Positions 17,551-32,090 are shown, counted from the stretch's first letter. The stretch is 33,855 nt of DNA from an uncultured Victivallis sp. (GCA_964506605.1 CAZDNQ010000001.1:1-33855); one strand, 5' to 3'. Made by a program: numbers and translations. The notes: a model not told the origin generated them from the letters alone.

Positions 17551-20500
17551 ATGTATAGAAATGTGAAATTTATTATTGCGGTGTTCGTAGCGCTTGCGGC
17601 GGCGGCGGGATTCTGCTCTGATGACGGCATGCTCGCGCAGATCCGCAGCGATGCCGGTTTATTCTGTTCCAGCCCCGACCGTTCCACCGGCGGCGAAGGC
17701 GCAAGGAAGACCGGAGACTTCATAATTGAAAATGCATCCTCTCTTCCAAACGTAAAGGTGTTCATCCAGGAGTTTCCCGTCATCGTCCCTCACACGCTAA
17801 GATCGGAGATACGGATCGAAAAGGGCGAATTCGCGGGAACGCACAGGATCTATCCGGTATGGCCCGACAACGTGCGCATGAAGACAACTCCTCCCGGAGG
17901 TATAGAGGGAACGCCTGTCTACATCGGCGACGGCGACTACAACGAGATCCCAGGCACCAGCATCCGCAACCAGATCGCTGTTATGGAGATGTCGTCATAC
18001 GGGTTCGGCACCTGGTGGCGCGCCTTCGATTTCGGCGCCAGGGCAGTTATCCTTCTCGGTTCGAAGGACGACAGCCTGAGCCTGCCAAACGACATGCCTT
18101 TCTACAAGCCGCGCTACTATCTGCCGGAAGGCAAGCTCGCCGACGCCATGCGCCGGGGTGAAATAAAGAACGCAGCCATATTCTGCAGCCAGGAATGGAA
18201 GACGGCGACCGCAAGAAACATTATCGCAGTGGTCTCAGGCAAGGAGGCTTCAATCAAGGTTCCGCTGGTGATCTCGGCCTGCTATGACGCGACAAGCATC
18301 GTGCCGGATCTGTCGCCGGGCGCATACAACGCCGTGAATTCCTCCTTCCTGCTCAACTTTCTCAGGTTCCTTTCAGCGCATCCTCCGGAACGTCCGGCCG
18401 TCATCGCGTTCGTGGAGGGATTTGGGATAAACCAGCTAGGGATGCGCCAGCTTATGGCCATGCTCTCCCTGGATCCTGACGACATCACCCGCAAGAGCTT
18501 CGAAGAGAAGATGGAGAAGCAGCTCGCCGAATACGAGAAGGCTTGCGTGCTTGCCGGGGAACTTGGCGATGACGCTGTACCAGCACTCTCAAAGCTGAAC
18601 GACAGGAAGAAATATGAGATCCTCCAGCAGTATGCGAAGGATGAACTCAGCCCGGAACTGGTCAAGCTCAAAAATGAGACCGGAAAGCTGAGGCTGGCGA
18701 TCGCCAAGGCCGGCAGGATGGACTGCGAGAAGGAGAAAGGCGAACTCGCGGTGAAGTCCGCAAGGGTCGAACTGCTCAACAGGCTCCTCTGCCAGATCAT
18801 CCTTTCCGGAAAGATCGACCAGGACCTGCACGACGAGTCCGGAAAAGTCTGGTCCGGCATCCGCAGCCGCGTCTCCGCCCAGCTTGCATCCATGAAGTCG
18901 AGAAGCGGATATTTCAAAGATCTTGACCAGATGAGGTCCGGCATCCTCAAGACATGCGGCCTTGACATCTCAACCAGGCTTCCCTTCCCGTTCATCGTCG
19001 GCATAGATCTTTCCGACGCCGGCTGCAACGTCGGCCCAGCTCTGTGGTGCCAGCATCTTGGAGTCAACGAAATAGAGTCGTCCAGGGAATTCACACGCTG
19101 GCTGACCTCCTTCATAACAGATCCCTCCAAGGAACTCTCGTCCATACCGCAGGACCGGATCTCCGGTCTTGGCGTCGAACAGGGCGACATCAGATCGCTG
19201 ATAAGCTCCTTCATGAACGCGGAATCGGTGGACGTCAGTTCGATCGAACGGCTGATCCGAAGCAAACTGCCAGCTATTTCCAAGGAGAAGATCGACAATA
19301 TCGCCAACAAGATCAAGATGACGAGGCGGGAGGGGATTGTCGCGGAAGAGACGATTTCACAGGCCCTGAAGGACGAACTCCAGGGCATGACCCAGGAGGA
19401 GATGTCGCGGCTTACCAAGTCGGTCATGAACCGCCAGTCCGTCGAGGACTCCTCAGCTCCGGAATCGTTCCTGCCGGAAGGAGTCGGACTTCTTACATCG
19501 CAGGCGGACGGCTTTGGAATGCAAGGTGTGACCTGGGCGACGCTCGAGGGCATCCGCTCGCGTTTCGACACTCCGCAGGACACGTATGCCAGCCTCAACT
19601 GGAACAGGCTCGATCCGCAGCTCCGTCTCACGTCGATAGTCATGGCATGCCTGCTCAACAGCAAGATTTTCAATGTGAAGCTCGGAGAGGACACCGGATG
19701 GCCTCGCTGGAGGATGCCATACGGCACAATAGTAGGGGAATCGATCGCCGGCACGATCCCGAAGACGCCCGAGCCGGGGATCCTCGTAAACTACACGAAC
19801 TCAAACTGGTGGAGCCCCTGCAACAAGGTCCGTGGAATAAGGGGCATGGAGATGGTGAAGACCGGCGCCGACGGGACATTTATTTTCCCTCCCGTGCGCA
19901 TCCCCTATGACTGGAAGACCGAGTGGAAAAAGGTGAACGCCTACAAGCTTTCCGAGGACGGCAGGCCGGTCCGGGGAATCTCCGACATAAACACCACCGT
20001 CGTGGGAAACCTCTCCTCGTCGTTCAATCTCCGTTCACGTCCTCCTATGAAGGCCCTGAGGGCCGTCATGTTCGAAGGCGTGGAGATGGAAGGCCCTACT
20101 ATAAAGGATCCGAGATACCAGTGCCAGCTCAACGAATACAAGCTGATCGATGTCGGCCGCGGCGGAACTCCGAAACGGTACAACTTCAGGTTCGCCTTCG
20201 GAAGGATGACAGGCATGCTCGAGAAGGACACCTACTGGCAGCTGATCTTCAGGATTGGCTCCTCCAACAGGATGGCCCTTATGAACGTGCCCCAGGATGC
20301 GGCCGATGGGAAGATCTCGCTGCGCGACGCCATCAACTGCGGCTACAGGATCGGCGAGGAGCTGCCTGCCCTGCCGGAGGAGATATCCGCGTCCGACTTC
20401 TTCAGGATAGACGAATGGCGCCTGAGGAATCTGGAAAGCGCCGGGGTCATCTGCAGATCGATCAGGAACATCCATGCCGACACCAAGGAATGCTTCAAGC

Positions 20501-22680
20501 AGGCCGATGACGCCAGGAAGGCCGACAACGGGGCCGCACTCAAGCGCGCGTCCTGCGCCGCCCTGGCGAACGAGATCCGCGTATACCATGCCGTGCAGAA
20601 CCAGGCGGACGACGTCAGCCGCGGTGCAATATTCCTCCTGCTGCTCCTTGTGCCGTTCTCAATTGCCATGGAACGCCTCCTCTTCGCCTTCCCCGGCATT
20701 GGCAGGCAGATAATGGGAAGCTCCGGAATCTTCCTCCTGATGGGAGGAGTCCTCGCGAGCTTCCATCCCGGATTCCGCATTACATCGCAGCCGATAATAA
20801 TCCTGCTCGCGTTCTCAGTCCTCCTCCTGAGCCTGATAGTGATAGTGATGGTGTTCCAGAAGTTCAAGGGCGACATGGAGGAGCTCCAGCGCGGATCACT
20901 CGCCGAGGCCAGCGGAGCCCAGATCAACCGAGCAGGCGTGATCTTCAGCGCGGTCTGGCTCGGGATCGCCAACATGAGGAAACGGCTTCTGAGGACCGTC
21001 CTCACCGGTTTCACCATCATGCTGATCACCTTCTCACTCCTGTGCTTCACTTCCTCCTCCTCATACCAGGACAAGAGGGAGACGACCTTGGACAAGTGCG
21101 GCTCAAAGAATGCTCCGGGTATCCTCATCCAGCATCCTGCAATGCGCTCGCTGGACACCGAGACTGAAGAGAACATCAGCAATTTCCTCGGGTACAGCCA
21201 TGCGGTCGCAGGCCGTTACTGGATAGTCTCCGGCAATCCGAACTGGAGGCTGCATGTAAGGAATCCGATGTCCAACAAGCTCGCAGCCCTTAAGGGCGGG
21301 CTGGGACTGTCCCCTTCAGAATCAAAAGTCGGATCAATTCCAAAGTATCTACCGGACTGGGAAAAGTTCGCCGCCGGCGACGGCTGCTACCTCAGCAGGA
21401 GCACGGCTGAACAGCTTGAACTGAAGCCGGGGGAGAAGGTGACTGTCGGAGGGCGCGAGCTTGTCCTGGCAGGTGTGTTCGACGCAAAGGATTTCGAGCA
21501 GAACGCAAGGAAGATCGACGGAAACCCCATCGCACCTATCGATTTCACCGTGGAAAGGGACAATGGCTCCCTGAGCCAGAAGGCAATCGAAGGAGAGCTC
21601 GCGAGCGGAAACATGCTGGCGGTCTCGGACACGTTCAGATATGTGTCTCCCGACGAAATGATCATCGTCCCTGCGGTTCTCGCAAGAAAGATGGGAGCGT
21701 CCCTCAGGAATATCGCCGTGCAATCCAATTCAGACGACTCCGCCAGCACCGCCGAACATCTCATGAAGCTCCTCGTATATCCCGTCTACTACAGCGCTGG
21801 GAACGAAGTCAGGGCGATCGTCTCGACACCCCTGCTCCCGAAGGCGCCGCGCCAGCTCCTCATACCGATAATCATAGCGGCCCTGATAATCTTCAACACC
21901 ATGCTCAATTCGATTGCGGAAAGAAAGAAGGAGATCCATATATACAGCAGCCTCGGACTCGCGCCAGGCCACATCGGAGTGCTGTTCCTGGCAGAGGCTC
22001 TGACGTACGGCATGATGGGATCGGTGTTCGGCTATGTCGCCGGACAGGGCATCGCAACCGCCCTCACCAGCTTCAATCTCATGGGAGGGATCACCCTGAA
22101 CTACTCAGGCTCGAACGTGATATTGACGATGGGGCTTGTACTCATGGTCGTCACACTCTCCTCCATCGTCCCCGCAATAATGGCTGCGAGAGTCGCAAGC
22201 CCGAGCAGGGAGCTCGACTGGCGCGTCCCGAAACCAAAGGACGGCGTCATCTCCGATCTCCTCCCGTTCACCGTCAACACGCACGCATCCCACGGCCTTG
22301 TCTCGTTCCTCTTCGAATATCTCGACGCCCACCGCGACGGCGCGATCGGCAATTTCACCTCCGACAAGCTCAACGTCAGGGAAATCGACGGCGGACATAT
22401 ACAGGTTGAAGGAATAGTCTGGCTTTCACCGTACGACCTCGGCGTCAGGCAGGAATTCGAGCTGGTGATATCTCCGACCGGAGTCGAGGACATCTGCAGC
22501 CTGAGGATCCTCCTGCGGCGCGAGGCGGGCGACGAGAGATCGTGGTGGAGGCTCAACCGCGTATTCATCGGAGACCTGCGCAAACAGCTGCTCGGATGGA
22601 GGAACATCTCTTCTGAAAGAATGCTCAAGTATGTCACGGAAGGAAGGATGAGGACGAAGAGGAAGACCGCAGATGCGTGA
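17551..22680 (+). CDS. 1709-aa fusion protein: signal peptide, PA/M28-like extracytoplasmic module with coiled-coil insertion, unknown beta-rich region, 3 TM, FtsX/MacB-type permease (4 TM plus about 270-aa periplasmic domain), and about 160-aa cytoplasmic tail
   Basis: A single uninterrupted ORF. It has a signal peptide (MYRNVKFIIAVFVALAAAAGFC) and an M28-like stretch (ARNIIAVVSGK..VISACYDA..PGAYNAVNS..IAFVEGFG). The MacB-type TM1 is IANMRKRLLRTVLTGFTIMLITFSLL. The FtsX domain is IIAALIIFNTMLNSIAERKKEIHIYSSLGLAPGHIGVLFLAEAL..IVPAIMAARVASPS. Confidence 0.9.
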   Translation: MYRNVKFIIAVFVALAAAAGFCSDDGMLAQIRSDAGLFCSSPDRSTGGEGARKTGDFIIENASSLPNVKVFIQEFPVIVPHTLRSEIRIEKGEFAGTHRIYPVWPDNVRMKTTPPGGIEGTPVYIGDGDYNEIPGTSIRNQIAVMEMSSYGFGTWWRAFDFGARAVILLGSKDDSLSLPNDMPFYKPRYYLPEGKLADAMRRGEIKNAAIFCSQEWKTATARNIIAVVSGKEASIKVPLVISACYDATSIVPDLSPGAYNAVNSSFLLNFLRFLSAHPPERPAVIAFVEGFGINQLGMRQLMAMLSLDPDDITRKSFEEKMEKQLAEYEKACVLAGELGDDAVPALSKLNDRKKYEILQQYAKDELSPELVKLKNETGKLRLAIAKAGRMDCEKEKGELAVKSARVELLNRLLCQIILSGKIDQDLHDESGKVWSGIRSRVSAQLASMKSRSGYFKDLDQMRSGILKTCGLDISTRLPFPFIVGIDLSDAGCNVGPALWCQHLGVNEIESSREFTRWLTSFITDPSKELSSIPQDRISGLGVEQGDIRSLISSFMNAESVDVSSIERLIRSKLPAISKEKIDNIANKIKMTRREGIVAEETISQALKDELQGMTQEEMSRLTKSVMNRQSVEDSSAPESFLPEGVGLLTSQADGFGMQGVTWATLEGIRSRFDTPQDTYASLNWNRLDPQLRLTSIVMACLLNSKIFNVKLGEDTGWPRWRMPYGTIVGESIAGTIPKTPEPGILVNYTNSNWWSPCNKVRGIRGMEMVKTGADGTFIFPPVRIPYDWKTEWKKVNAYKLSEDGRPVRGISDINTTVVGNLSSSFNLRSRPPMKALRAVMFEGVEMEGPTIKDPRYQCQLNEYKLIDVGRGGTPKRYNFRFAFGRMTGMLEKDTYWQLIFRIGSSNRMALMNVPQDAADGKISLRDAINCGYRIGEELPALPEEISASDFFRIDEWRLRNLESAGVICRSIRNIHADTKECFKQADDARKADNGAALKRASCAALANEIRVYHAVQNQADDVSRGAIFLLLLLVPFSIAMERLLFAFPGIGRQIMGSSGIFLLMGGVLASFHPGFRITSQPIIILLAFSVLLLSLIVIVMVFQKFKGDMEELQRGSLAEASGAQINRAGVIFSAVWLGIANMRKRLLRTVLTGFTIMLITFSLLCFTSSSSYQDKRETTLDKCGSKNAPGILIQHPAMRSLDTETEENISNFLGYSHAVAGRYWIVSGNPNWRLHVRNPMSNKLAALKGGLGLSPSESKVGSIPKYLPDWEKFAAGDGCYLSRSTAEQLELKPGEKVTVGGRELVLAGVFDAKDFEQNARKIDGNPIAPIDFTVERDNGSLSQKAIEGELASGNMLAVSDTFRYVSPDEMIIVPAVLARKMGASLRNIAVQSNSDDSASTAEHLMKLLVYPVYYSAGNEVRAIVSTPLLPKAPRQLLIPIIIAALIIFNTMLNSIAERKKEIHIYSSLGLAPGHIGVLFLAEALTYGMMGSVFGYVAGQGIATALTSFNLMGGITLNYSGSNVILTMGLVLMVVTLSSIVPAIMAARVASPSRELDWRVPKPKDGVISDLLPFTVNTHASHGLVSFLFEYLDAHRDGAIGNFTSDKLNVREIDGGHIQVEGIVWLSPYDLGVRQEFELVISPTGVEDICSLRILLRREAGDERSWWRLNRVFIGDLRKQLLGWRNISSERMLKYVTEGRMRTKRKTADA

Positions 22681-22712
22681 TACGTCTGATCAATTGAATT
22701 GGAAATGGGAAT

Positions 22713-24707
22713 ATGAGGGAAGACAAGGAATATAAAGAATTCAGGGATCTGATGAAGCGTCCGGAGAAGTTCGAGGACGGCTTCAACAGCGGAACCGTGG
22801 TCATGGGGCTGTTCGTCGGCCTCGTGATGGCACCTGCCTCCGTGTATATGAATCTCGTCGCCGGACTCCATATGGGCGGAGCCGCGCAGTGGGTGACGGT
22901 CCTGCTCTACGTCGAGATCGCCAGAAGGGCGTTCAAGAAGCTGAGCCGCCCGGAGATATTCGTCCTCTTCTACATGTGCGGCGCCGCGATAGCCGCAGGC
23001 GGACAGGACTGGCTGTGGCGCCAGTTCCTCGTGCAGAGCGAGGAGATGAGGAAGATGGGGCTCATCGAATATATTCCGTCGTGGTTCGCGCCTACCGATC
23101 CGGAGATCCTCAAGAAGCACAGCTTCCTGATGTGGGAATGGCTCTGGCCGATCGGCATCACCTGCCTCATGATGCTCCTCCAGCGTGTCGACCACTTCGG
23201 ACTCGGATATGTGCTGTTCAGGCTGACGGCGGACGTCGAGGAGCTTCCTTTCCCCATGGCTCCTGTAGGGGCGGCAGGAATGACGGCTCTTGCGGATGCG
23301 TCGGCCGACAGGGAGACCTGGCGGTACCGTGTATTCTCGATGGGCGCGATCCTCGGAATTTTCTTCGGTGCAATCTATATCGCGCTGCCAAGCATAACAG
23401 GAGCTTTCCTGTCTGAGCCGATCCGTCCTATCCCGATGCCGTTTGTCGATCTGACAAGCTACACTGAAAGCGTCCTCCCTGCATCGCCGATTATGTTCTC
23501 GTTCGACCTTGGATACGTAATATTCGGCATGGTGATGCCGTTCTGGGCGATCATAGGCTCCCTTTTCGGAGTCATATTCACCATGTTCTTCAATCCAATA
23601 CTCCAGCTGACGGGATTCCTCGGAGGATGGGAACCGGGCCTCAACGCGATGGATACCGTGCGGTCGAACGTCTTCGACTTCTACTTCAGCTTCAATCTAG
23701 GCCTTCTCTTCGCCGTCGCCGCAATAGGAATATTGCACATGTACAGGACATTCCAGAAGAAAAAGAAGGAGGCCGACGAACTGGGCAAGGCCGGCATCGA
23801 CTGGGGCAGGCTCTTCAAAAGTCCGGAAGGCAGGGGCGACTTCTCGATATGGATCGGCGTGGCGATATATGTAGCCTCAACCCTGACCTATGTTCTCGCC
23901 ACATACTATCTTGTCAACTACGGATCCGGCCCCCTCGCAGGAAACATGTTCCCGTTCTGGCTGCTGCTTGTATATGGTTTCATCTGGACGCCGTTCATCA
24001 GCTATATCTCGGCGCGAATGGAAGGTCTTGTCGGACAGCAGATGCAGATACCGTTCGTCAGGGAGTCGACGTTCATCCTTTCCGGATACAAGGGCGCGGC
24101 GATCTGGTTCGCGCCGATACCGCTCCACAATTATTCCTACCAGGTGCTGCAGTTCCGACAGATGGAGCTGACCGGCACGAAGTTCACATCATTGATAAAG
24201 GCTGAAATAATCACCTATCCCCTGATGATCGTCGGAACCATGATATTCGCGCAGTTCATATGGTCGATCGGCCCCGTCCCGAGCGAGATGTTCCCGTATG
24301 CAAACGAGTTCTGGGAACTCAATGCATATAACCAGGGTCTTGTATATACCGCAACCCTGCCGGGAGAGGTGCTGAATCCGTTCCGTGAATCGTTCCGGCC
24401 AGATCTGATCTGCGGAGGATTCGGAATGGCGATGATCCTCTACGGGATTCTTGCGCACTTCAACCTACCGGTGTTCCTGGTATACGGAATGATCCGCGGC
24501 CTCGACCAGTCTCTGCCGCACACCATCATACCGACGATCATCGGCGCGATACTTGGCCGTTACTTCTGCAGCAGGTGGTTCGGCGAAAAATGGCCACAGT
24601 ACAGGGTCGTCTTCGCCGCCGGATTCGGAGCTGGAATGGGGCTGATAACAATGTTCGCACTGGGAATAGTGTTCATGAGCAAGAGCGCAAACCTGTTCCC
24701 GATATGA
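22713..24707 (+). CDS. 664-aa polytopic membrane protein, paralogue 2 (distant OPT-like, tentative)
   Basis: It has at least 12 hydrophobic helices. VEELPFPMAPVGAAGMTAL resembles the OPT-family LPFPSGTATA motif and the ERLSFPL motif of the 15518 gene. The C-terminal Gly-rich helices are similar to paralogue 1. Confidence 0.85.
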   Translation: MREDKEYKEFRDLMKRPEKFEDGFNSGTVVMGLFVGLVMAPASVYMNLVAGLHMGGAAQWVTVLLYVEIARRAFKKLSRPEIFVLFYMCGAAIAAGGQDWLWRQFLVQSEEMRKMGLIEYIPSWFAPTDPEILKKHSFLMWEWLWPIGITCLMMLLQRVDHFGLGYVLFRLTADVEELPFPMAPVGAAGMTALADASADRETWRYRVFSMGAILGIFFGAIYIALPSITGAFLSEPIRPIPMPFVDLTSYTESVLPASPIMFSFDLGYVIFGMVMPFWAIIGSLFGVIFTMFFNPILQLTGFLGGWEPGLNAMDTVRSNVFDFYFSFNLGLLFAVAAIGILHMYRTFQKKKKEADELGKAGIDWGRLFKSPEGRGDFSIWIGVAIYVASTLTYVLATYYLVNYGSGPLAGNMFPFWLLLVYGFIWTPFISYISARMEGLVGQQMQIPFVRESTFILSGYKGAAIWFAPIPLHNYSYQVLQFRQMELTGTKFTSLIKAEIITYPLMIVGTMIFAQFIWSIGPVPSEMFPYANEFWELNAYNQGLVYTATLPGEVLNPFRESFRPDLICGGFGMAMILYGILAHFNLPVFLVYGMIRGLDQSLPHTIIPTIIGAILGRYFCSRWFGEKWPQYRVVFAAGFGAGMGLITMFALGIVFMSKSANLFPI

Positions 24708-24719
24708 GGAAGATGACAG

Positions 24720-25655
24720 ATGGCAGAGGACAGAAAACAGAATGAAGAAAAGATGGGCAAGATGAGCCAGAAGAACGAAACTGACTTCATAAGCTGGCAG
24801 GGATTCAGGATTCCGCTTATGAGGGAATGGCGTCCGCTGAAGATAGAAGGCGGATTCCGCAAGGGCTCGGTCGCGATTGGCGACGTGTCAGGCCCACTCT
24901 TCGAGATCAGATGGGTGAGACCGGATGCAGCCGACTTCGACGGACGCGCCTGGATCAGCAGGAACAAGGAGCGGTCCAGCGACAACATCGCTTCCGCTCC
25001 GCCACGTCCGCAGGGGTTCTCATCCGTCGGATGGATAAAGGAGTTCGAGGACAAAGGTTCATCGAAGAAGACAGTTTGGTGGGGATATTCCGTTGAAGGA
25101 ATGGTGTTGATTGAGATAGTCGTAGGCGAAATCATTGACAAGCCATCATATGAATGGATAATTTCGGAGGCGATACCATCCCTCAAGGTGTCGAAGCCCG
25201 ACGAGGAATGGATCTGGAGGATCTTCAGCGCGCAGTTCTCGGTTCCAGCAGGCTTTGTCCTGGAAAGGCACAGGCTGAACAACGGCGACATGTCCCTTTG
25301 CTTCACACGCGGGAAGAAGGAGAGGCTTGTCATGCGCCAGGTATATCCTGCGGACCTCGCAGTCGGCAGGAGATCCCTTGAAAAATGGTTCGACGAGTCC
25401 CCATTCAGGGAGAGCAGGAAGTTCAGGGAGGCGAAGGACGGCGTACGTTGCGAAAGGAAGAAGGATTTCACGGTGGACGGATGGAAGCTTGTCCCTTTTC
25501 CGTTCGGATTCGTAAGGCCGCGCAGGTGCCGCAGGCTTGCTGCGGTTGACGATGCCAGTGACAGGATCTTCATGACGGAATATGAGTATGGGAAAAGGGA
25601 TTCGGGCGAAGCTGCGGAGTTCGCAATGAAGAAGATGCGCGGAGGCGTCCTGTGA
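24720..25655 (+). CDS. 311-aa soluble (cytoplasmic) protein of unknown function, Trp/Arg-rich
   Basis: The ORF starts 12 nt after the preceding stop, with GAGGAAG upstream, and ends in a GTGA overlap with the next gene. It has no TM segment, no signal peptide and no recognisable motif. Confidence 0.75.
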   Translation: MAEDRKQNEEKMGKMSQKNETDFISWQGFRIPLMREWRPLKIEGGFRKGSVAIGDVSGPLFEIRWVRPDAADFDGRAWISRNKERSSDNIASAPPRPQGFSSVGWIKEFEDKGSSKKTVWWGYSVEGMVLIEIVVGEIIDKPSYEWIISEAIPSLKVSKPDEEWIWRIFSAQFSVPAGFVLERHRLNNGDMSLCFTRGKKERLVMRQVYPADLAVGRRSLEKWFDESPFRESRKFREAKDGVRCERKKDFTVDGWKLVPFPFGFVRPRRCRRLAAVDDASDRIFMTEYEYGKRDSGEAAEFAMKKMRGGVL

Positions 25656-26023
25656 ACCTGTTCGGAAATGTCCCGAAGAATGATGCGATGGGGCGCGCCG
25701 CGGCGCTTAACGCGTGTCCGGTGCGCACCAATGCGGTCAAGACGGAGGAGAAGAAGGACAAGCTCTACGTGACGGTCCTCTTCATGAGGCCGAAATGGCA
25801 GCAGTGGCTTGGGGCCGAGGAGAAATGCCAGCGGACGTTTGGACTGGACAAATACGGAGTGGAAGTATACCGTGCCTGCGACGGTGGGACTTCCGTTAAG
25901 AAGATAGTTGATGTTTTTGCGGAAAACCATAAGATGAGCATCGCCGAAGCGGAGATATCTGTATGCCAGTTCATAAAGACTCTGCTGATAAAGGGGCTTA
26001 TTGTAATGCAGGTGGAGAAATAA
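25652..26023 (+). CDS. PqqD-family / RiPP-recognition-element (RRE)-like small protein
   Basis: 123 aa with a GTG start overlapping the upstream stop (GTGA). FGLDKYGVEVYRACDGGTSVKKIVDVFAENHKMSIAEAEISVCQFIKTLLIKGLI matches the PqqD pattern (L...g..vw..cDG..tv.eIv..l...y.....a..dv..Fl..L...gli). Confidence 0.7.
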   Translation: MNLFGNVPKNDAMGRAAALNACPVRTNAVKTEEKKDKLYVTVLFMRPKWQQWLGAEEKCQRTFGLDKYGVEVYRACDGGTSVKKIVDVFAENHKMSIAEAEISVCQFIKTLLIKGLIVMQVEK

Positions 26024-26033
26024 GGTCAATACG

Positions 26034-26684
26034 ATGAAGACAGAACAGGAAATTATGGAGATCGAGTCCCTGCCGCTGGGGAAGATAATCAGCATCACCT
26101 GCAAGGGGATCAGGATACGCATATGGCGGTCCCTCATAGTGGTGTCCGGCATCGTCCTCGCGATCGCGTTCCTGTCGTACATCCTCTGCTCGGACGGCTT
26201 TGCGCAGAACGTCTCAAAGGCGGCGGGAAGCGCGCTGGAGCAGGCAAACCCGGAAAAGATCCAGGAACTGAAGGACCAGCGCGTCCAGACATACTGGATG
26301 GTCGGGCTCGCGATACTGATAAGCTTTGTCGGAATAATAAACGCCATGCTGATGAGCGTCACCGAAAGGTTCCGCGAGATCGGAACGATGAAGTGCCTCG
26401 GCGCGATCGACTCGTTCGTCCTGAAGATGTTCCTGATAGAGAGCGTGATCGAAGGAGTGATAGGCGCAATCTTCGGCGTGTCCGCCGGAATCGCGATCGC
26501 CTATGCCGAGGGCATGTTCACATATGGTTCGGGAGTATGGACGATGCTGCCGGCCGGATGGTTCATGTGCGTCGTCGGCTTCTCATTCGTCACAGGTGTG
26601 ATAATAACCGTAGTAGCGGCCCTCTATCCGGCCCGCGAGGCCGCGAAGATGACCCCGGTCGTGGCGCTGAGGGCGGAGCTGTGA
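26034..26684 (+). CDS. Minimal FtsX-family ABC permease (4 TM, extracytoplasmic loop of only about 45 aa)
   Basis: 216 aa. TM1 is IRIWRSLIVVSGIVLAIAFLSYIL. The FtsX core is INAMLMSVTERFREIGTMKCLGAIDSFVLKMFLIES...ALYPAREAAKMTPVVALRAE. Confidence 0.88.
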   Translation: MKTEQEIMEIESLPLGKIISITCKGIRIRIWRSLIVVSGIVLAIAFLSYILCSDGFAQNVSKAAGSALEQANPEKIQELKDQRVQTYWMVGLAILISFVGIINAMLMSVTERFREIGTMKCLGAIDSFVLKMFLIESVIEGVIGAIFGVSAGIAIAYAEGMFTYGSGVWTMLPAGWFMCVVGFSFVTGVIITVVAALYPAREAAKMTPVVALRAEL

Positions 26685-26742
26685 GGAATGACGAATATCG
26701 AATTGCGAAATCAATTTGAAGACAATTGGATTTTGAAGGAGC

Positions 26743-26759
26743 GCCGGCGTCCCGCCGGC
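26743..26759 (+). promoter_or_regulatory. GC-rich hairpin (GCCGGCG-TCC-CGCCGGC) between a GAAGGAG Shine-Dalgarno and the ATG of the first ATPase gene
   Basis: Perfect 7-bp all-G/C stem with a 3-nt loop. GAAGGAG (26735-26741) lies immediately 5' and the ATG (26761) lies 2 nt 3' of the stem. Confidence 0.5.
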
Positions 26760-26760
26760 A

Positions 26761-27552
26761 ATGAATATAATGGGCGGAAACATGGAAAATGATAAAGCGG
26801 CTGAAGTTGCGGAAAACCATCTCTCCACGAACTACGTGGTCCGGGCCACCGGCGTGAAGAAGGTCTACACCATGGGCAGCGAAAAAGTCCATGCCCTGCG
26901 CGGCGTCGATTTCGCGGTGCGCCGAGGCGAATACATTTCCATCATGGGCCCTTCCGGCTCCGGCAAGAGCACTCTTTTCAACATGATTGGCGGATTGGAC
27001 AAGCCGAACGAGGGACAGGTCTACATCGACGAGGTCGACATCGCAGCGCTCAATCCCGTCGAACTCGCCTGGCTCCGCTGCCACAAGGTCGGATACATAT
27101 TCCAGACCTACAATCTCATAACCGTGGCGACCGCCCTGGACAATGTCATGCTGCCGATGACATTCGCCGGAATGCAGCAGGCGGACGCACAGGACAAGGC
27201 CGTCAAGCTCCTGGAAAAGGTCGGACTCGGAGAACGCGTCCTCCACAAGCCTCTCCAGATGTCTGGCGGACAGCAGCAGCGCGTCGCAATCGCCCGCGCG
27301 CTGGCGAACAGCCCGTCCATAGTCCTCGCCGACGAACCGACGGCGAACCTGGACAAGAAGACCGGACTCCAGATCATAAACCTCCTCAAGGAGCTCAACC
27401 AGTCGGAGGGTGTCAGCATAATCACGGCGACGCACGACCACAAGATGCTCGACATATCCGACAGGATAGCGTGGGTGCGCGACGGACGCATAGAGAAGTT
27501 CCAGAAACGCTCGGAACTGGAAATCAAGGAAGGTGAGATGCATGTCCAGTGA
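26761..27552 (+). CDS. ABC transporter ATP-binding protein, MacB/LolD/FtsE-type (copy 1)
   Basis: It has Walker A (GPSGSGKST), a Q-loop (IFQTYNL), the signature MSGGQQQRVAIARAL, Walker B (IVLADEPTANLD) and an H-loop (ATHDH). An alternative start is ATG 26782. Confidence 0.93.
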   Translation: MNIMGGNMENDKAAEVAENHLSTNYVVRATGVKKVYTMGSEKVHALRGVDFAVRRGEYISIMGPSGSGKSTLFNMIGGLDKPNEGQVYIDEVDIAALNPVELAWLRCHKVGYIFQTYNLITVATALDNVMLPMTFAGMQQADAQDKAVKLLEKVGLGERVLHKPLQMSGGQQQRVAIARALANSPSIVLADEPTANLDKKTGLQIINLLKELNQSEGVSIITATHDHKMLDISDRIAWVRDGRIEKFQKRSELEIKEGEMHVQ

Positions 27553-28267
27553 CAATGTCATTTCCATAAAGAAGGTAAAACGCTGCTACCGCATCGGGGG
27601 GGAGACTGTCTGGGCGCTCGACGGGGTGGATCTCGACATACGCCGAGGCGAATACCTTTCCATAATGGGTCCGTCCGGCTCCGGCAAGAGCACCCTTTTC
27701 AACATGATAGGAGGGCTTGACCTCCCGAGCGAAGGGGAAGTCACGATCGACGGCGCTTTCCTTACGAAGATGAACCAGAAGCAGCTGGCATATGTCCGCT
27801 GCAAGAAAATAGGATATATTTTCCAGACGTTCAACCTGATAGAGGTGATGTCCGCGGCAGAGAACGTAATGCTCCCTATAATCTTCAGCGGCGTTTCCGA
27901 CGAGGAGGCGAAGCAGAGGGCTATAGAGATTCTCGACAGGGTCGGACTCTCCGGACGATATGACCACAGGCCTTCGCAGCTTTCCGGCGGACAGCAGCAG
28001 CGCGTCGCAGTCGCCCGTGCACTTGCCAACACCCCGGCGATCCTGCTCGCGGACGAGCCTACCGGAAACCTCGACCTCAAGACAGGAGAGGAACTCATCC
28101 GCACGCTGCAGAAGCTCAAGGATGAACTCGGTGTCACAATCATAACCGCGACCCACGACCACAAAATGCTGGCGGCATCAGACCGGGTCATCTATCTCGA
28201 AGCCGGCAAGATCATCGACATCAAGACAAAGGAGCATCTCTCCTTCTCATTTGGAAAGATTGGATGA
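27542..28267 (+). CDS. ABC transporter ATP-binding protein, MacB/LolD/FtsE-type (copy 2, tandem paralogue)
   Basis: It has Walker A (GPSGSGKST), the signature LSGGQQQRVAVARAL, Walker B (ILLADEPTGNLD) and an H-loop (ATHDH). The ATG at 27542 is preceded by AAGGAAGGTGAG and overlaps the copy-1 stop by 11 nt. The longest ORF begins at GTG 27533. Confidence 0.93.
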   Translation: MSSDNVISIKKVKRCYRIGGETVWALDGVDLDIRRGEYLSIMGPSGSGKSTLFNMIGGLDLPSEGEVTIDGAFLTKMNQKQLAYVRCKKIGYIFQTFNLIEVMSAAENVMLPIIFSGVSDEEAKQRAIEILDRVGLSGRYDHRPSQLSGGQQQRVAVARALANTPAILLADEPTGNLDLKTGEELIRTLQKLKDELGVTIITATHDHKMLAASDRVIYLEAGKIIDIKTKEHLSFSFGKIG

Positions 28268-29759
28268 TGCTCCGTACGGGTTTGAAAAAAAGGGGGATTC
28301 CTTGACATATTTTCTTCTTGCTCTGATAATCATCCTTGCCTCATTGGCTGCGGTCCTTGCATGCTGGAGCCTCAGGAACAGCAGGGCGGCGTCGAAATCT
28401 GCGGCTTTCCTTGCACAGAACCAGCACAAGCTGGCGGAGTTCCGCAAGAGTTCCATACCGGCATCCTCTGCCGGAAACGAAGAAACGGCCATGGAAAAGT
28501 TCATTGAACTGATAGATGGCATCTTCCATCCCGACGCATCTGTCATATACCTCCACAGGAAAGACGGCGGCAAGGAGACCATTGAAATCATGTGCTGCTC
28601 AGGGGTCGTCTCTTCCGTCTTCGTAAGCGGCTGGTCCTCCGAGAGCAGGGAAAAGGTCATGGACAGCCTTGAAAAGTATATCATATTCTCATCCCGTCCG
28701 CATCTGCTGTCTTCCGGGGAGATCTCAGGAAATATCCCTTCCCCGTTCCCTTTCAGCCCTGGAGCCGCGATCGCCTCAGTGGTGAAGGCGGAGAACCATG
28801 CCTACTACATCCTGCTTCTGAAAAAGGATGTCCGGTCGAGTTTTTCGGAAACCGAGTGCGCCTCTCTTGACTTCTGGAGCTCCTGCATGGAAAAGGAGAT
28901 TCTCCGCATATGCGCTGCAAGGGAGAAGGATTCGATGGGCAACGCCCTGCAGAAGGCCCACGAGGAGGGAATGGTCCAGATCTCGTCCGGCATCATACAC
29001 AACATCGGCAACGGACTTACCGTCCTCCAGATGCAGATGAAGTCACTTGAACACCACAGGCAGATAAGGGAGCTGAGCGATTTCCTGCACAAGGAGGCGC
29101 TTCCTGTAATCCAGTCACATGTGAAAGACGGCACCCTGCTCGAATTTTTAAAGGATGATCCCAGCGGAAAAGCATATCTCGAGGTCATAGGTGAATCCCT
29201 GAGGCAGATATCGGCGTTGAGCCTCGAACTTGGGGAGAACCTGGACAAATCCCTGAAGATGTTCTCCGGCATACTGGAGGTCATAAACCTGCAGCACCAG
29301 TTCATAGGCGAGCTGGGGACGGAGAATGTCGTCTCCATCGAGTCAATAATAAGGGATGCCATCCTGATGTCGCAGTCAATCATTGCAGAAAACAAGATTG
29401 CCCTGGTAAAGAAGATAAATTCCAGATCAAACCTGCTTGTCGACGCGGCCCTCTTGAAGCATATAACCGTGCTGAACATCAAATATGCCGTGGACTCCAT
29501 AAACAAGGCCAGCAGGTCTGAGCCGGTGATCTCAATAGGCAGCTCCGAGGAAGTTGAAAACGGCAGGCTGTGGATAATACTGGAGATAAAGGACAACGGA
29601 TATGGAATCGACTTCAATCCACAGGGGGAGGACCAGCGCGCGCGCGACCTCAGGTTCTGTAGCGAACGTATTGCCAAGTACGGAGGCAGATACAACATCG
29701 AATTCAGACAGGGCTACGGTTCAGTGATCACTTTCAGGATGCCGGGATATGTTTCCTGA
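28251..29759 (+). CDS. Membrane-anchored histidine kinase without an extracytoplasmic sensor domain
   Basis: It has a single N-terminal TM (YFLLALIIILASLAAVLACW), a cytoplasmic GAF/PAS-sized region, an H-box (SSGIIHNIGNGLTVL) and HATPase_c motifs (LEIKDNGYGID, GYGSVITF). No in-frame ATG lies near the 5' end, so the start is TTG 28251/28260 (overlapping the ATPase stop) or TTG 28302 (AGGGGGA RBS). Confidence 0.85.
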   Translation: MERLDDAPYGFEKKGDSLTYFLLALIIILASLAAVLACWSLRNSRAASKSAAFLAQNQHKLAEFRKSSIPASSAGNEETAMEKFIELIDGIFHPDASVIYLHRKDGGKETIEIMCCSGVVSSVFVSGWSSESREKVMDSLEKYIIFSSRPHLLSSGEISGNIPSPFPFSPGAAIASVVKAENHAYYILLLKKDVRSSFSETECASLDFWSSCMEKEILRICAAREKDSMGNALQKAHEEGMVQISSGIIHNIGNGLTVLQMQMKSLEHHRQIRELSDFLHKEALPVIQSHVKDGTLLEFLKDDPSGKAYLEVIGESLRQISALSLELGENLDKSLKMFSGILEVINLQHQFIGELGTENVVSIESIIRDAILMSQSIIAENKIALVKKINSRSNLLVDAALLKHITVLNIKYAVDSINKASRSEPVISIGSSEEVENGRLWIILEIKDNGYGIDFNPQGEDQRARDLRFCSERIAKYGGRYNIEFRQGYGSVITFRMPGYVS

Positions 29760-29793
29760 GGGAATTCAGCACATGCATAAACCCTAATTCCGA

Positions 29794-30042
29794 AGTTCAC
29801 GAGTCGCGGCAACTGCAAGGAAACGAGACGAAGCTGTGATAACCACTGCGAGTTGAAGCTGACGCCGCAGTTGCCGATGAATCGTGAACTCCCTTCGGGT
29901 TTTGAAAGAGATGAACTATTTTGTGCAAAACGAATTTTTCCATTTTGAACTCATATTTCAGATTCTCATCTCTTTCAAAATCGGGATTAGGGATAAAAGG
30001 AGAAGGAGCCCCACGGAGGGGGAATCCGCAGAACTCCTTCTT
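29794..30042 (+). other. Highly structured non-coding island containing three long inverted repeats; candidate structured 3' UTR or ncRNA, family not recognised
   Basis: IR1 pairs 29794-29802 with 29882-29890 (9 bp) and 29807-29816 with 29867-29876 (10 bp). IR2 pairs 29898-29914 with 29966-29982 (17 bp including one G-U). IR3 pairs 30001-30008 with 30034-30041 (8 bp), enclosing CCCC-ACGGA-GGGG. A CUUCGG tetraloop-type motif lies at 29893-29898. Confidence 0.45.
29898..29982 (+). repeat. Inverted repeat GGTTTTGAAAGAGATGA / TCATCTCTTTCAAAATC with a 51-nt loop
   Basis: 15 consecutive Watson-Crick pairs (29900-29914 with 29966-29980) extend by a G-U and a G-C pair. The G-U works only if the plus strand is the transcript. 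Confidence 0.7.
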
Positions 30043-30043
30043 T

Positions 30044-30166
30044 ATGGAATGGGAAGAAAAGGTCAATTTCATAAACTACTGTGCGGCAACTCCCGATGAT
30101 TACTTCAGGGACAATGGAATCAACCTTTATCGCTGCCGTAACCTGCCCGAAGTCTCGCACATATAG
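30044..30166 (+). CDS. Candidate 40-aa small ORF (MEWEEKVNFINYCAATPDDYFRDNGINLYRCRNLPEVSHI)
   Basis: The ATG at 30044 immediately follows IR3, whose 5' arm is the SD-like AGAAGGAG and whose 3' arm is CTCCTTCT. There is no homology evidence, so this is speculative. Confidence 0.2.
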   Translation: MEWEEKVNFINYCAATPDDYFRDNGINLYRCRNLPEVSHI

Positions 30167-30168
30167 AG

Positions 30169-30198
30169 TCAGGCGTCGTGGATTCACCTGAGTTTTTA
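30169..30198 (+). terminator. Weak intrinsic terminator candidate for plus-strand transcription (TCAGGCG..CACCTGA followed by GTTTTT)
   Basis: A 5-6 bp stem (30169-30175 with 30185-30191) is followed by a T5 run at 30193-30197. The T-run orientation fits the plus strand only. Confidence 0.3.
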
Positions 30199-30223
30199 AA
30201 GAACATCCCTGATCCTCTCGGCT

Positions 30224-30322
30224 TCAGGAGAAAATCGCCGGTATCGCATAAGCTATCACCACTATCATGACTACGGCGTATGTCAGAACATCCATCGGAG
30301 TAAATCTCAGTTTGTTCTTCAT
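30224..30322 (-). CDS. Unannotated 32-aa hydrophobic small protein (MKNKLRFTPMDVLTYAVVMIVVIAYAIPAIFS)
   Basis: The ATG at 30322 is preceded by GGAGG (30335-30331) with an 8-nt spacer and by a consensus sigma54 promoter about 40 nt further upstream. The product has a basic N-terminus plus one predicted TM helix. It is below the 60-aa cutoff of the ORF track. Confidence 0.55.
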   Translation of the reverse strand: MKNKLRFTPMDVLTYAVVMIVVIAYAIPAIFS

Positions 30323-30363
30323 ATTCACTACCTCCGTACTCTTGATTTTCTGATAGTTTTATT

Positions 30364-30379
30364 AGCAATGACCGTGCCA
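30364..30379 (-). promoter_or_regulatory. Sigma54 (-24/-12) promoter: TGGCACGGTCATTGCT
   Basis: The minus strand from 30379 to 30364 reads TGGCAC-GGTCA-TTGCT. GG and GC are separated by exactly 10 nt and all consensus positions of TGGCAC-N5-TTGC are matched. It lies directly downstream of a sigma54 enhancer-binding-protein gene. Confidence 0.7.
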
Positions 30380-30424
30380 AGTCAATTTTTATATTTGTAA
30401 TACCCTTCACAGTAGCTAGTTATA

Positions 30425-30555
30425 ATTATTTAGTACATGTATTGAAAACATGCCAAAACTTACCATAATTTAGTAGAGAATAGGCAGAAACAGTGGTATC
30501 TATTTTTTTATAAACAGGTTATGACTTACAATAACCGGAGGTACTACTAAATTAT
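30425..30555 (-). promoter_or_regulatory. AT-rich upstream region with three copies of an ATAATTTAGTAG-like motif (candidate enhancer/UAS sites)
   Basis: ATAATTTAGTAG at 30465-30476 and its perfect reverse complement CTACTAAATTAT at 30544-30555 are 12/12 identical. A 10/12 copy (ATTATTTAGTAC) lies at 30425-30436. These sit 45-175 nt upstream of the -24 element. Confidence 0.35.
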
Positions 30556-31970
30556 TGTACCGGTTTCTTGTATCCTTTGGAATACCTATTGCTTATCGAC
30601 TGCTGCGAGATTCCGATCAGCCTTGCCGCCATGCTCTGGTTCCCTTCGGATCGTTTCATGGCCTCGTTGATCAGGGCTTCCGTTAGATCCCTGCTGTCAG
30701 GAAGTTTTTCCATTCCCGCGAATATTTCTGAAATATTCGATTTCACCGCGGCAGGATTCACCGCCAATACTGATCCGCCTATATGCTTTGTAAAACTCTC
30801 CAGGGAGAGCACCTTTGAACTGTGCTTTCCTACAGCATCATACACCATCGACTTGAGCTCCCTCACATTGCCGGGATAATCATAGTTCTTCAGCAGCACC
30901 ACCAGCTCCTGCGGATATGCCGGCTTCGGTTTCCTGAACTCATCTGACGCCTGTGCCAGGAAATGCTCCAGAAGAAGAGGAATATCCTCCTTCCTCTCCC
31001 TGAGAGGGGGGATGTCTATGTGATGGGTGATAAGCCTGTAGTACAGATCGTTCCTGAACTTCCCTTCTTCCACCAGCTTCAGCAGCCCGCAGTTGGTGCT
31101 GGCGACAATCTTTGCGTCGGTGGTCTTCTTCACATCCGAACCAAGAGGCGAATATTCGTGCTCCTGTATCAGGCGAAGAAGCTTCACCTGTGAATCCATG
31201 CTAAGGTCCCCTATCTCATCCAGATAAAGCGTCCCCTCGGCAGCCTCCTCGACCAGCCCGCTGCGTGCGTGGTCGGCACCCGTGTATGCGCCTTTCACAT
31301 GCCCGAACAATGTGTCCGCAAACACATTCGCATCGACACCCGCCACATTTACGGACACCATCTTCCCTTTTCTTCCGCTCAGCGCATGCACCGCATTCGA
31401 GAAAAGCTCCTTGCCAGTGCCGGTCTCCCCGGTGATCAGCATCGGATACGATGAGGGAGCAACCGCCTCGCAGTACCGGAACAGCTTCATCATAGCCGGA
31501 CTGGCAGTGATTATGCCCGAGAAAGCCTCGGGATGCTCAAGCTCAACGGATGACAGCTGCCTTGACAGCATCTCGTTCTCGAGCTTGAGATCCTGCATCT
31601 TGACAGCCCTGTTTATCGTGGCTGTGAACAATGAGACATCAAGCGGTTTCAGGATGAAGTCGAAAGCCCCGCCCTTCATGCATCTTATCGCGGTGGATAT
31701 GTCGCCGGAGCCGGTGACGATGATGACAATTATCTCCGGATGCTCCTTGGTTATGATATCAAGAAGATCCTCCCCCCTTATCCCAGGCAGGTTGAGATCG
31801 AGAATTACAATCTTGGGTGAATATTTCTGTATTGCAGGCAGGACTTCCTCGCCGTGCCCTATCTCCAGGTAGTTTTCATATCCTGAATTCTTAAGGCAGC
31901 GCGCAATCATCTTCCTGACAATCGGCTCGTCGTCGACTATCAATATTGGAAATCTAGGATTGTCCTTCAT
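30552..31970 (-). CDS. Sigma54-dependent response regulator (NtrC family: REC, AAA+ sigma54-interaction domain, Fis-type HTH)
   Basis: The REC domain shows ILIVDDEP...VILDLNLPG. Walker A is GETGTGKELF, the GAFTGA-loop variant is GAYTGA, Walker B is LYLDEIGD and there is an R-finger region. The C-terminal HTH is NQSMAARLIGISQQSISNRY. GGGAGGGGGAAG lies upstream of the ATG. Confidence 0.93.
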   Translation of the reverse strand: MKDNPRFPILIVDDEPIVRKMIARCLKNSGYENYLEIGHGEEVLPAIQKYSPKIVILDLNLPGIRGEDLLDIITKEHPEIIVIIVTGSGDISTAIRCMKGGAFDFILKPLDVSLFTATINRAVKMQDLKLENEMLSRQLSSVELEHPEAFSGIITASPAMMKLFRYCEAVAPSSYPMLITGETGTGKELFSNAVHALSGRKGKMVSVNVAGVDANVFADTLFGHVKGAYTGADHARSGLVEEAAEGTLYLDEIGDLSMDSQVKLLRLIQEHEYSPLGSDVKKTTDAKIVASTNCGLLKLVEEGKFRNDLYYRLITHHIDIPPLRERKEDIPLLLEHFLAQASDEFRKPKPAYPQELVVLLKNYDYPGNVRELKSMVYDAVGKHSSKVLSLESFTKHIGGSVLAVNPAAVKSNISEIFAGMEKLPDSRDLTEALINEAMKRSEGNQSMAARLIGISQQSISNRYSKGYKKPVQ

Positions 31971-32090
31971 CTTCCCCCTCCCACGGCAAAATTGAGCAAT
32001 TGCTTAAAATATCCCTGTCTTGCATTGGTTACCAGTTAGTGGTAGACAAAAATCCGGTGTTGTTGATTCATTCATAATCATAAGATTTTT

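Follow-up and report, generated by a model that had tools for sequence, protein, structure and literature searches.

RESULTS

Organization of the locus

The window, by which we mean the whole 33,855-nucleotide stretch of DNA from an uncultured Victivallis sp. analyzed here, carries on its minus strand a gene for an NtrC-family activator, followed directly on the 3' side by a small unit that comprises two palindromes, a sigma-54 promoter sequence, a short open reading frame (ORF), a structured region, and an intrinsic terminator. These features are listed below in the order in which they are met on the minus strand; L001, L002, and L165 are the orthologous loci introduced after the list.

31972 to 31981, minus strand: G-rich Shine-Dalgarno (SD) region of the activator gene, GGAGGGGGAA, followed by the ATG at 31970; complement of the terminator loop and candidate feedback target
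30552 to 31970, minus strand: gene for an NtrC-family response regulator/sigma-54 activator of 472 aa, identified by its Pfam domains and orthologues
30545 to 30559, minus strand: palindrome 1, TACAATAATTTAGTA, candidate activator site centered at -199 and overlapping the activator stop codon
30461 to 30475, minus strand: palindrome 2, TACTAAATTATGGTA, candidate activator site centered at -115, 84 bp from palindrome 1
30364 to 30379, minus strand: sigma-54 promoter, TGGCACGGTCATTGCT, an exact match to the consensus, conserved in L001, L002, and L165
30224 to 30322, minus strand: 32-codon ORF for a predicted single-pass membrane peptide; coding in L001, degenerate in L002, absent from L165
30076 to 30190, minus strand: structured non-coding middle domain, present in the window, L002, and L165 and absent from L001
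30046 to 30058, minus strand: C/U-rich stretch, UUCUUCCCAUUCC, candidate pairing region with the invariant core UUCCCAUUCC
29995 to 30041, minus strand: intrinsic terminator, a 17-bp hairpin with the loop UUCCCCC followed by CC UUUU, nearly invariant in the four loci

The product of the activator gene matched the Pfam families Response_reg, Sigma54_activat (E = 1e-54), AAA_lid_14, and HTH_8, and within its sequence is GAYTGA, a variant form of the loop that contacts sigma-54. Since it reached none of the NCBIfam equivalog cut-offs, it is to be regarded as a generic member of the NtrC family. The gene ends 173 nt upstream of the promoter, of which its product is the presumed activator.

Orthologous loci were collected by scanning genome and metagenome contigs for the activator protein (L001 and L002) or by a protein search followed by a contig look-up (L165). 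The resulting set consists of the window, L001 (= L085, Lentisphaerae bacterium GWF2_50_93), L002 (Lentisphaerae GL140_5), and L165 (a Victivallales MAG). The activators of the three other loci are 75 to 77% identical to that of the window, and L001 and L165 are sisters, with an activator identity of 87%. The four loci form one clade, and the conservation, the covariation, and the link between a G run and the 3' module described below represent few and non-independent observations. Two more distant activators (P0009 and P0010; 54% identity) were found in different contexts, with no module.

The neighboring genes are otherwise not conserved beside the module, so the conserved pair consists of the activator gene and the small unit. 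A convergent gene for a 502-aa histidine-kinase-like protein was considered as a partner of the unit and rejected, as no counterpart of it lies beside the module in L001 or L002. L084 is a 100%-identical strain variant whose sequence equals that of the window throughout the module, but from ~29780 onward it carries different genes in place of the kinase-like one. Three short contigs from other samples, L082, L083, and L084, all start exactly at window position 30517, between the activator stop codon and the promoter; these shared starts, together with the divergence of L084 at ~29780, suggest that the strains are rearranged, or that the assembly graph branches, at either edge of the module. 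On the plus strand, a co-directional gene cluster (17551-29759) encodes a 1709-aa protein with a C-terminal FtsX-type permease region, a 664-aa polytopic membrane protein, a 311-aa protein, a 123-aa PqqD-like protein, an FtsX permease, two ABC ATPases, and the 502-aa kinase-like protein, which has no Pfam match. This may be a peptide-modification or export cluster.

A sigma-54 promoter with upstream palindromes at fixed distances

A preliminary description of this DNA, which a model had made from the sequence, placed a consensus sigma-54 promoter on the minus strand from 30379 to 30364. The sequence there was confirmed as TGGCACGGTCATTGCT; its GG occupies 30378-30377 and its GC 30366-30365 (GG-N10-GC). 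Apart from the core of this site, TGGCACGGTCATTGC (30379-30365), the window has no exact -24/-12 match: on the two strands of its 33,855 bp, TGGCAC-N5-TTGC was found a single time, against 0.03 occurrences expected, and it was matched in 3 of 100 shuffled sequences. Permitting one mismatch added no further site in the window. Transcription is predicted to start near 30353 on the minus strand.

The promoter is found in each of the four orthologous loci as TTGGCA(C/T)-N5-(T/C)TGCT. Upstream of it, all four carry two 15-bp palindromes of the form TAC(A/T)A-N5-T(A/G)GTA, centered at -199/-200 and -115/-116 from the predicted start and always 84 bp apart, while the DNA between these elements is only 57 to 62% identical among the loci. 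In the window the pattern matches just palindromes 1 and 2, against 0.05 occurrences expected. Since the pattern was set post hoc, with the data already in view, the fixed positions across four genomes are a stronger argument than that expectation. The site shows GG at -24, GC at -12, and the 10-nt separation typical of a sigma-54 promoter, and it is accompanied by an activator that has a domain for interaction with sigma-54 and by candidate binding sites ~100 to 200 bp upstream. The claim of a promoter was borne out by its conserved position and by the two palindromes at fixed distances in 4/4 loci, and it is very probable that the promoter is functional and controlled by the activator.

A sigma-54 promoter also lies 3' of the activator stop codon in a second clade (L167 to L170), whose activators show 60 to 62% identity. 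Two members of that clade, L169 and L170, have a palindrome CACAA-N5-TTGTR at -114, which is related to palindrome 2. The half-site differs between the two activator clades, which would fit the adjacent activator as the binding protein. In L167 (2778), L169 (3685), and L170 (2038), the promoter drives a gene for a hybrid response regulator/histidine kinase, and there is no small RNA unit. It may therefore be that a kinase gene gave way to the module in the window.

Directly 3' of the activator stop codon, and overlapping palindrome 1, lies an 8-bp inverted repeat, TACAATAA-N16-TTATTGTA (30526-30557, minus strand). It is A/T-rich and unlikely to be a terminator, so that transcription of the activator gene may run on into the small unit, as has been reported for cbrB-crcZ.

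The 32-codon ORF appears to code for a peptide in two of the four loci

The ORF described behind the promoter was found exactly as reported, with GGAGG at 30335-30331, an 8-nt spacer, ATG at 30322-30320, and the stop codon TGA at 30226-30224, and in a frame different from that of the 96-aa ORF at 30120-30410. Its translation is MKNKLRFTPMDVLTYAVVMIVVIAYAIPAIFS. A GTG at 30328, in frame with the ORF, is an alternative start, and in the nucleotide alignment the GTG start of the L001 ORF falls on it. The description of the ORF as unannotated held only in part, since the public gene calls of this contig (JGI 3300010352, Ga0116247_10002109) already include a 32-residue product at this place, although without a name.

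Where the ORF is present, in the window and L001, it shows the marks of a coding sequence. The two versions (99 nt) differ at 28 positions, of which 8, 4, and 16 fall in the first, second, and third codon positions, respectively, a third-position excess with a P value of 0.008. For this single pair and its 28 differences, dN was 0.23 and dS 1.07, giving a ratio of 0.22, whereas the ratio in the frame of the 96-aa ORF was ~2.9. The only indel between the two versions is of 6 nt and preserves the frame. The start region is also plausible in both, the SD spacing being canonical in the window and L001 having AAGAGG followed by GTG. Both peptides have a basic or polar N terminus, and in both the 19-residue stretch from residue 12 has a mean hydropathy of ~2.4 to 2.5. 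We consider it likely that the peptide is translated in the genome of the window.

The ORF is not a constant part of the unit. L002 retains a remnant, ATG AAG ACC TGA, plus a degenerate stretch, and L165 lacks the ORF region entirely. The promoter, the upstream palindromes, and the terminator-bearing 3' RNA module are nevertheless present in both. The conservation of promoter plus ORF that had been looked for 3' of orthologous activators was therefore seen for the promoter (4/4) but only in part for an intact ORF (2/4, the window and L001). Between the sisters L001 and L165 the loss is reciprocal, L165 being without the ORF and L001 without the hairpin domain. Because these two are sisters, the complete arrangement of the window is most likely the ancestral one, and the ORF would have been lost at least twice. 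The comparison shows a peptide that appears to be under purifying selection but dispensable.

The peptides of the window and L001 had no match in Pfam (E <= 10) or NCBIfam (E <= 1). Pfam contains models for MgrB, KdpF, and AcrZ, and membership in the families named in the preliminary description found no support in these searches.

A conserved non-coding 3' end with a terminator and a C-rich loop

The hairpin at 30041-30001, which the preliminary description did not mention, ends the unit ~225 nt past the ORF stop codon. It is a G+C-rich hairpin followed by a U run, as expected of an intrinsic terminator, it is conserved in 4/4 loci, and it contains one compensatory change, G-C to A-U, in L002. 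With this terminator, the unit would be ~360 nt long (from ~30353 to 29995) and shut off from the plus-strand gene that runs toward it and stops at 29759.

Together with CUUUUCUUCCCAUUCC in front of it and the U run behind it, the hairpin forms a 67-nt 3' module. The mean identity of this module in the four loci is 88%, compared with 76% for the coding sequence of the activator, 53% for the 100 nt beyond the terminator, and 53 to 62% for the flanks overall. This non-coding 3' end is thus better conserved than either the ORF or the activator gene.

Between the ORF and the 3' module lies the middle domain, made up of a short hairpin (30190-30170), which includes the invariant GAAUCCACGACGCCUG, and a long hairpin of ~90 nt (30166-30076), in which five pairs are changed on both sides among the window, L002, and L165. 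The whole consensus structure has six compensatory pairs, against a mean of 1.8 in shuffled alignments, none of 500 of which reached six. When the structure was slid by 1 to 3 columns, only 0 to 3 compensatory pairs remained, and the share of paired cells fell from 93% to between 39 and 51%. Because there are three sequences, and because the structure was derived from the same sequences on which it was tested, the covariation is suggestive only. The full predicted transcript folds with -114.7 kcal/mol (z-score, -3.45).

Two other readings of the unit were considered. A second small ORF in the middle domain (MFFK...) was rejected, since the loci do not share a reading frame there: between the conserved AUGUUCUUUAAAA and the invariant GAAUCCACGACGCCUG, the frame of the window differs from that of L002/L165. 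A CsrA sponge was set aside, because GGA motifs are not enriched (~7 in 359 nt, versus ~5.6 expected).

A search against Rfam 15 returned nothing relevant for window positions 29500-30700 (E <= 1) or for L001, L002, and L165 (E <= 0.1), the sole matches being chance hits to eukaryotic RNA families far under their gathering scores. In blastn and tblastn searches of 171 sequences (1.09 Mb) with the ORF, the middle domain, and the 3' module, no copies were found beyond the four loci and their strain variants, and hence there is no sign in this set of a dispersed repeat or of paralogues. As judged from its conservation and structure, the odds that the 3' module functions at the RNA level appear even.

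Predicted pairing of the 3' module with the activator mRNA

The loop of the terminator hairpin together with three bases of its stem reads UUCCCCCUCC (30024-30015), and this 10-mer is the exact complement of the activator SD region GGAGGGGGAA over all 10 nt. When 27 plausible start regions of the window were ranked by predicted pairing, that of the activator came first with both C-rich motifs. For the loop motif the value was -22.1 kcal/mol, with a runner-up of -17.9 at another gene and most of the other regions between -3 and -11; for the C/U stretch it was -19.4 kcal/mol, with a runner-up of -16.1 at a different gene. The activator start region likewise ranked first in L001, L002, and L165. 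A run of five to seven G residues is present at the activator start in 4/4 loci with the module and in none of five related activator genes without it; the start regions of these five are A/U-rich, with pairing energies of -0.3 to -6.3.

Several points weaken this picture. Strong SD sequences are inherently complementary to C-rich sequence, and any C-rich terminator loop will look complementary to them. The pairing between loop and SD amounts to just 7 to 8 bp in L001 and L165, and three of the ten pairing bases sit within the stem of a very stable hairpin. We therefore regard feedback of the RNA on its activator as a tentative proposal, possible rather than probable.

The 10-mer GGAGGGGGAA is present in three copies in the window, against 0.14 expected, one copy being the complement of the RNA itself. 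The third copy (16100-16091, minus strand) lies antisense inside the plus-strand gene 15518-17497 and is not at a gene start.

DISCUSSION

A putative sigma-54-dependent transcript with an optional ORF

The reading that we favor, with a probability of roughly 0.55, is that the unit specifies a sigma-54-dependent, sRNA-like transcript with an optional small ORF, which possibly feeds back on its own activator. Under this reading, 30559-29995 (minus strand) would be a self-contained sigma-54-dependent transcription unit directly 3' of the activator gene. The phosphorylated activator would bind the palindromes at -199 and -115 and open the promoter at 30379-30364, giving rise to a predicted transcript of ~360 nt that ends at the hairpin 30041-30001. 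This transcript would have two roles. It would be the mRNA of a 32-residue peptide with a basic N terminus and one membrane-spanning helix, and its non-coding 3' part, made up of the long hairpin, the single-stranded UUCCCAUUCC, and the terminator with its C-rich loop, would exert regulation by base pairing with G-rich ribosome-binding sites. The most likely target would be the activator's own mRNA, with its SD GGAGGGGGAA, in a negative feedback predicted to be like that of the Qrr RNAs on luxO.

Alternative readings

The alternative that survives best is that of a plain small-protein gene, whose transcript would be the mRNA of the peptide and nothing else, the peptide perhaps being a modulator of a kinase or transporter and the rest a long functionless 3' untranslated region with a terminator. 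This is in essence what had been proposed at the outset, and part of it stands: the promoter is credible, and the ORF looks like a coding one, with signs of purifying selection, a frame-preserving indel, a good SD at the right spacing, a hydrophobic helix, and an existing gene call. What did not stand is the view of the unit as essentially a peptide gene, because the ORF is gone from L002 and L165, where the promoter, its upstream sites, and the 3' module persist. Nor would a functionless 3' end be expected to be better conserved than the ORF and the activator gene, to show compensatory pair changes in the middle domain, or to take part in a reciprocal loss, between the sisters L001 and L165, of the ORF and the hairpin domain. 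We therefore find this explanation unlikely.

At the other extreme, the unit could be a purely non-coding sigma-54-dependent sRNA, with an ORF that is untranslated or gives a functionless product and an apparent conservation that comes from one pair of sequences. The ORF is indeed missing from two of the four loci, and the dN/dS value is drawn from 28 differences in a single pair. Against this, the third-position excess is significant (P = 0.008), the ratio of 0.22 in the ORF frame compares with ~2.9 in the other open frame, the 6-nt indel preserves the frame, and the start region has canonical SD spacing in the window and AAGAGG followed by GTG in L001. A wholly non-coding unit is thus decidedly improbable.

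The preliminary description had also raised the idea of a type I toxin-antitoxin system, in which a hydrophobic membrane toxin is kept in check by an antisense or overlapping RNA. Type I toxins are typically small and hydrophobic, and the ORF has the size and hydrophobicity typical of this class. A consensus scan, whose negative outcome is a weak one, found no sigma-70-like promoter on the plus strand that would read into the ORF from nearby, and neither a repeat nor a second RNA gene was seen. Moreover, expression appears to be driven by a sigma-54 promoter that depends on an activator and has conserved sites upstream of it, two losses of the ORF have left the remaining unit in place, and the peptide has no match in Pfam or NCBIfam. 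With neither an antisense promoter over the ORF nor a constant toxin gene, the idea lost its support, and we rate it as highly improbable.

That the promoter-like sequence is a nonfunctional chance match and the hairpin merely a terminator or insulator of the neighboring genes is equally hard to credit, for although the hairpin of the window does lie between convergent genes, the downstream gene is co-directional in L001 and L165, so that the hairpin serves no convergent gene there, only 0.03 exact promoter matches were expected, and the promoter with its two positioned palindromes is kept in four genomes in which the surrounding non-coding DNA is 53 to 62% identical.

Relation to known systems

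Read as a sigma-54-dependent, sRNA-like transcript, the unit has parallels in several known systems. CbrB, the product of the gene that precedes crcZ, activates the RpoN promoter from which crcZ is transcribed (PMC6292655, PMC8871633). In the CrcZ/CbrB system of Pseudomonas and Azotobacter, as would be the case here, an sRNA gene lies directly 3' of the gene for its own NtrC-family activator, and an RpoN-dependent promoter is switched on by that activator via upstream sites. The same layout is found in NrsZ/NtrC. The differences from CrcZ are considerable: there is no sequence or Rfam match, the phylum is another (Lentisphaerota), CrcZ is a protein sponge with repeated A-rich motifs, which the window unit does not have, and CrcZ is without an ORF, whereas the window unit has one.

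Two spirochaete MAGs contain a related arrangement. In L006 (5575-5700) and L016 (5644-5830), a sigma-54-like promoter, CGGCAC-N5-TTGC, lies just 3' of a homologous activator (46 to 47% identity) and is followed by 5 to 7 tandem (C/G)AUGUAA(A/G)A motifs, with no ORF; this element looks like a sponge-type sRNA comparable to CrcZ. In a Cellvibrionaceae MAG, L013 (2472-2720), TGGCAC-N5-GTGC is located 3' of the activator and ~230 nt upstream of csrA (MLILTRKSGEKLMVGDD...).

The Qrr RNAs depend on sigma-54 and on an activator, pair over the luxO ribosome-binding site, and thereby exert negative feedback on their own activator (PMC2632942). The window RNA resembles the Qrr/LuxO system of Vibrio in its predicted 10-nt perfect complement to the activator SD. 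It differs in that there is no Rfam match, that the pairing is at the level of a prediction, that the candidate pairing bases lie in or beside the terminator rather than in a 5' seed, and that the transcript, at ~360 nt and with an ORF, would be much longer than a Qrr RNA.

Dual-function sRNAs are short transcripts that encode a peptide of <50 residues and also have a conserved non-coding part, and some relatives keep just one of the two functions (PMC12310071). The window unit would be like SgrS/SgrT, AzuCR/AzuC, RNAIII/Hld, and SR1/SR1P in combining a peptide ORF and a conserved non-coding part in one predicted transcript. SgrS is a case in which relatives have kept only one of the two functions. 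Sigma-54 control appears to be absent among the ten characterized dual-function sRNAs in a review (PMC12310071). The helix of the window peptide would be fully membrane-spanning and not amphipathic.

With MgrB, SafA, KdpF, and AcrZ, the peptide shares a length of ~30 residues, a single hydrophobic helix, and apparent two-component control. It is set apart from them in that it has no Pfam or NCBIfam match, that no conserved partner kinase or transporter adjoins the unit (the kinase-like gene is unlinked in L001, L002, and L084), and that it is lost in close relatives. Our search of the full-text literature found no regulatory RNA or small protein for Lentisphaerota/Victivallales, and Rfam has none for this locus.

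Significance

A more specific form of the favored reading is that of an undescribed modular riboregulator of the Lentisphaerota, driven by sigma-54 and controlled by the activator whose gene precedes it, in which the invariant C-rich 3' module represses translation of the activator via its unusual G5 SD and the optional ORF and hairpin modules are gained and lost independently among close relatives; all of these together we consider rather unlikely. The practical reach of the locus is limited, as the element is known from only four metagenome-derived genomes. It does make concrete predictions, namely both activator sites, the promoter, and a 10-nt duplex of the C5 loop with the G5 SD, and these can be tested in a heterologous host with no need to grow the organism.

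If the proposal is true, a CrcZ-type layout and a Qrr-type feedback would have arisen independently in the PVC superphylum, and the unit would represent a dual-function sRNA under sigma-54 control, captured while its coding and non-coding functions are being exchanged. The four loci would then amount to a small natural experiment, in which sister lineages kept either the peptide ORF or the structured RNA domain while the promoter and the C-rich 3' end were always kept, and which would bear on the rise and decay of dual-function RNAs.
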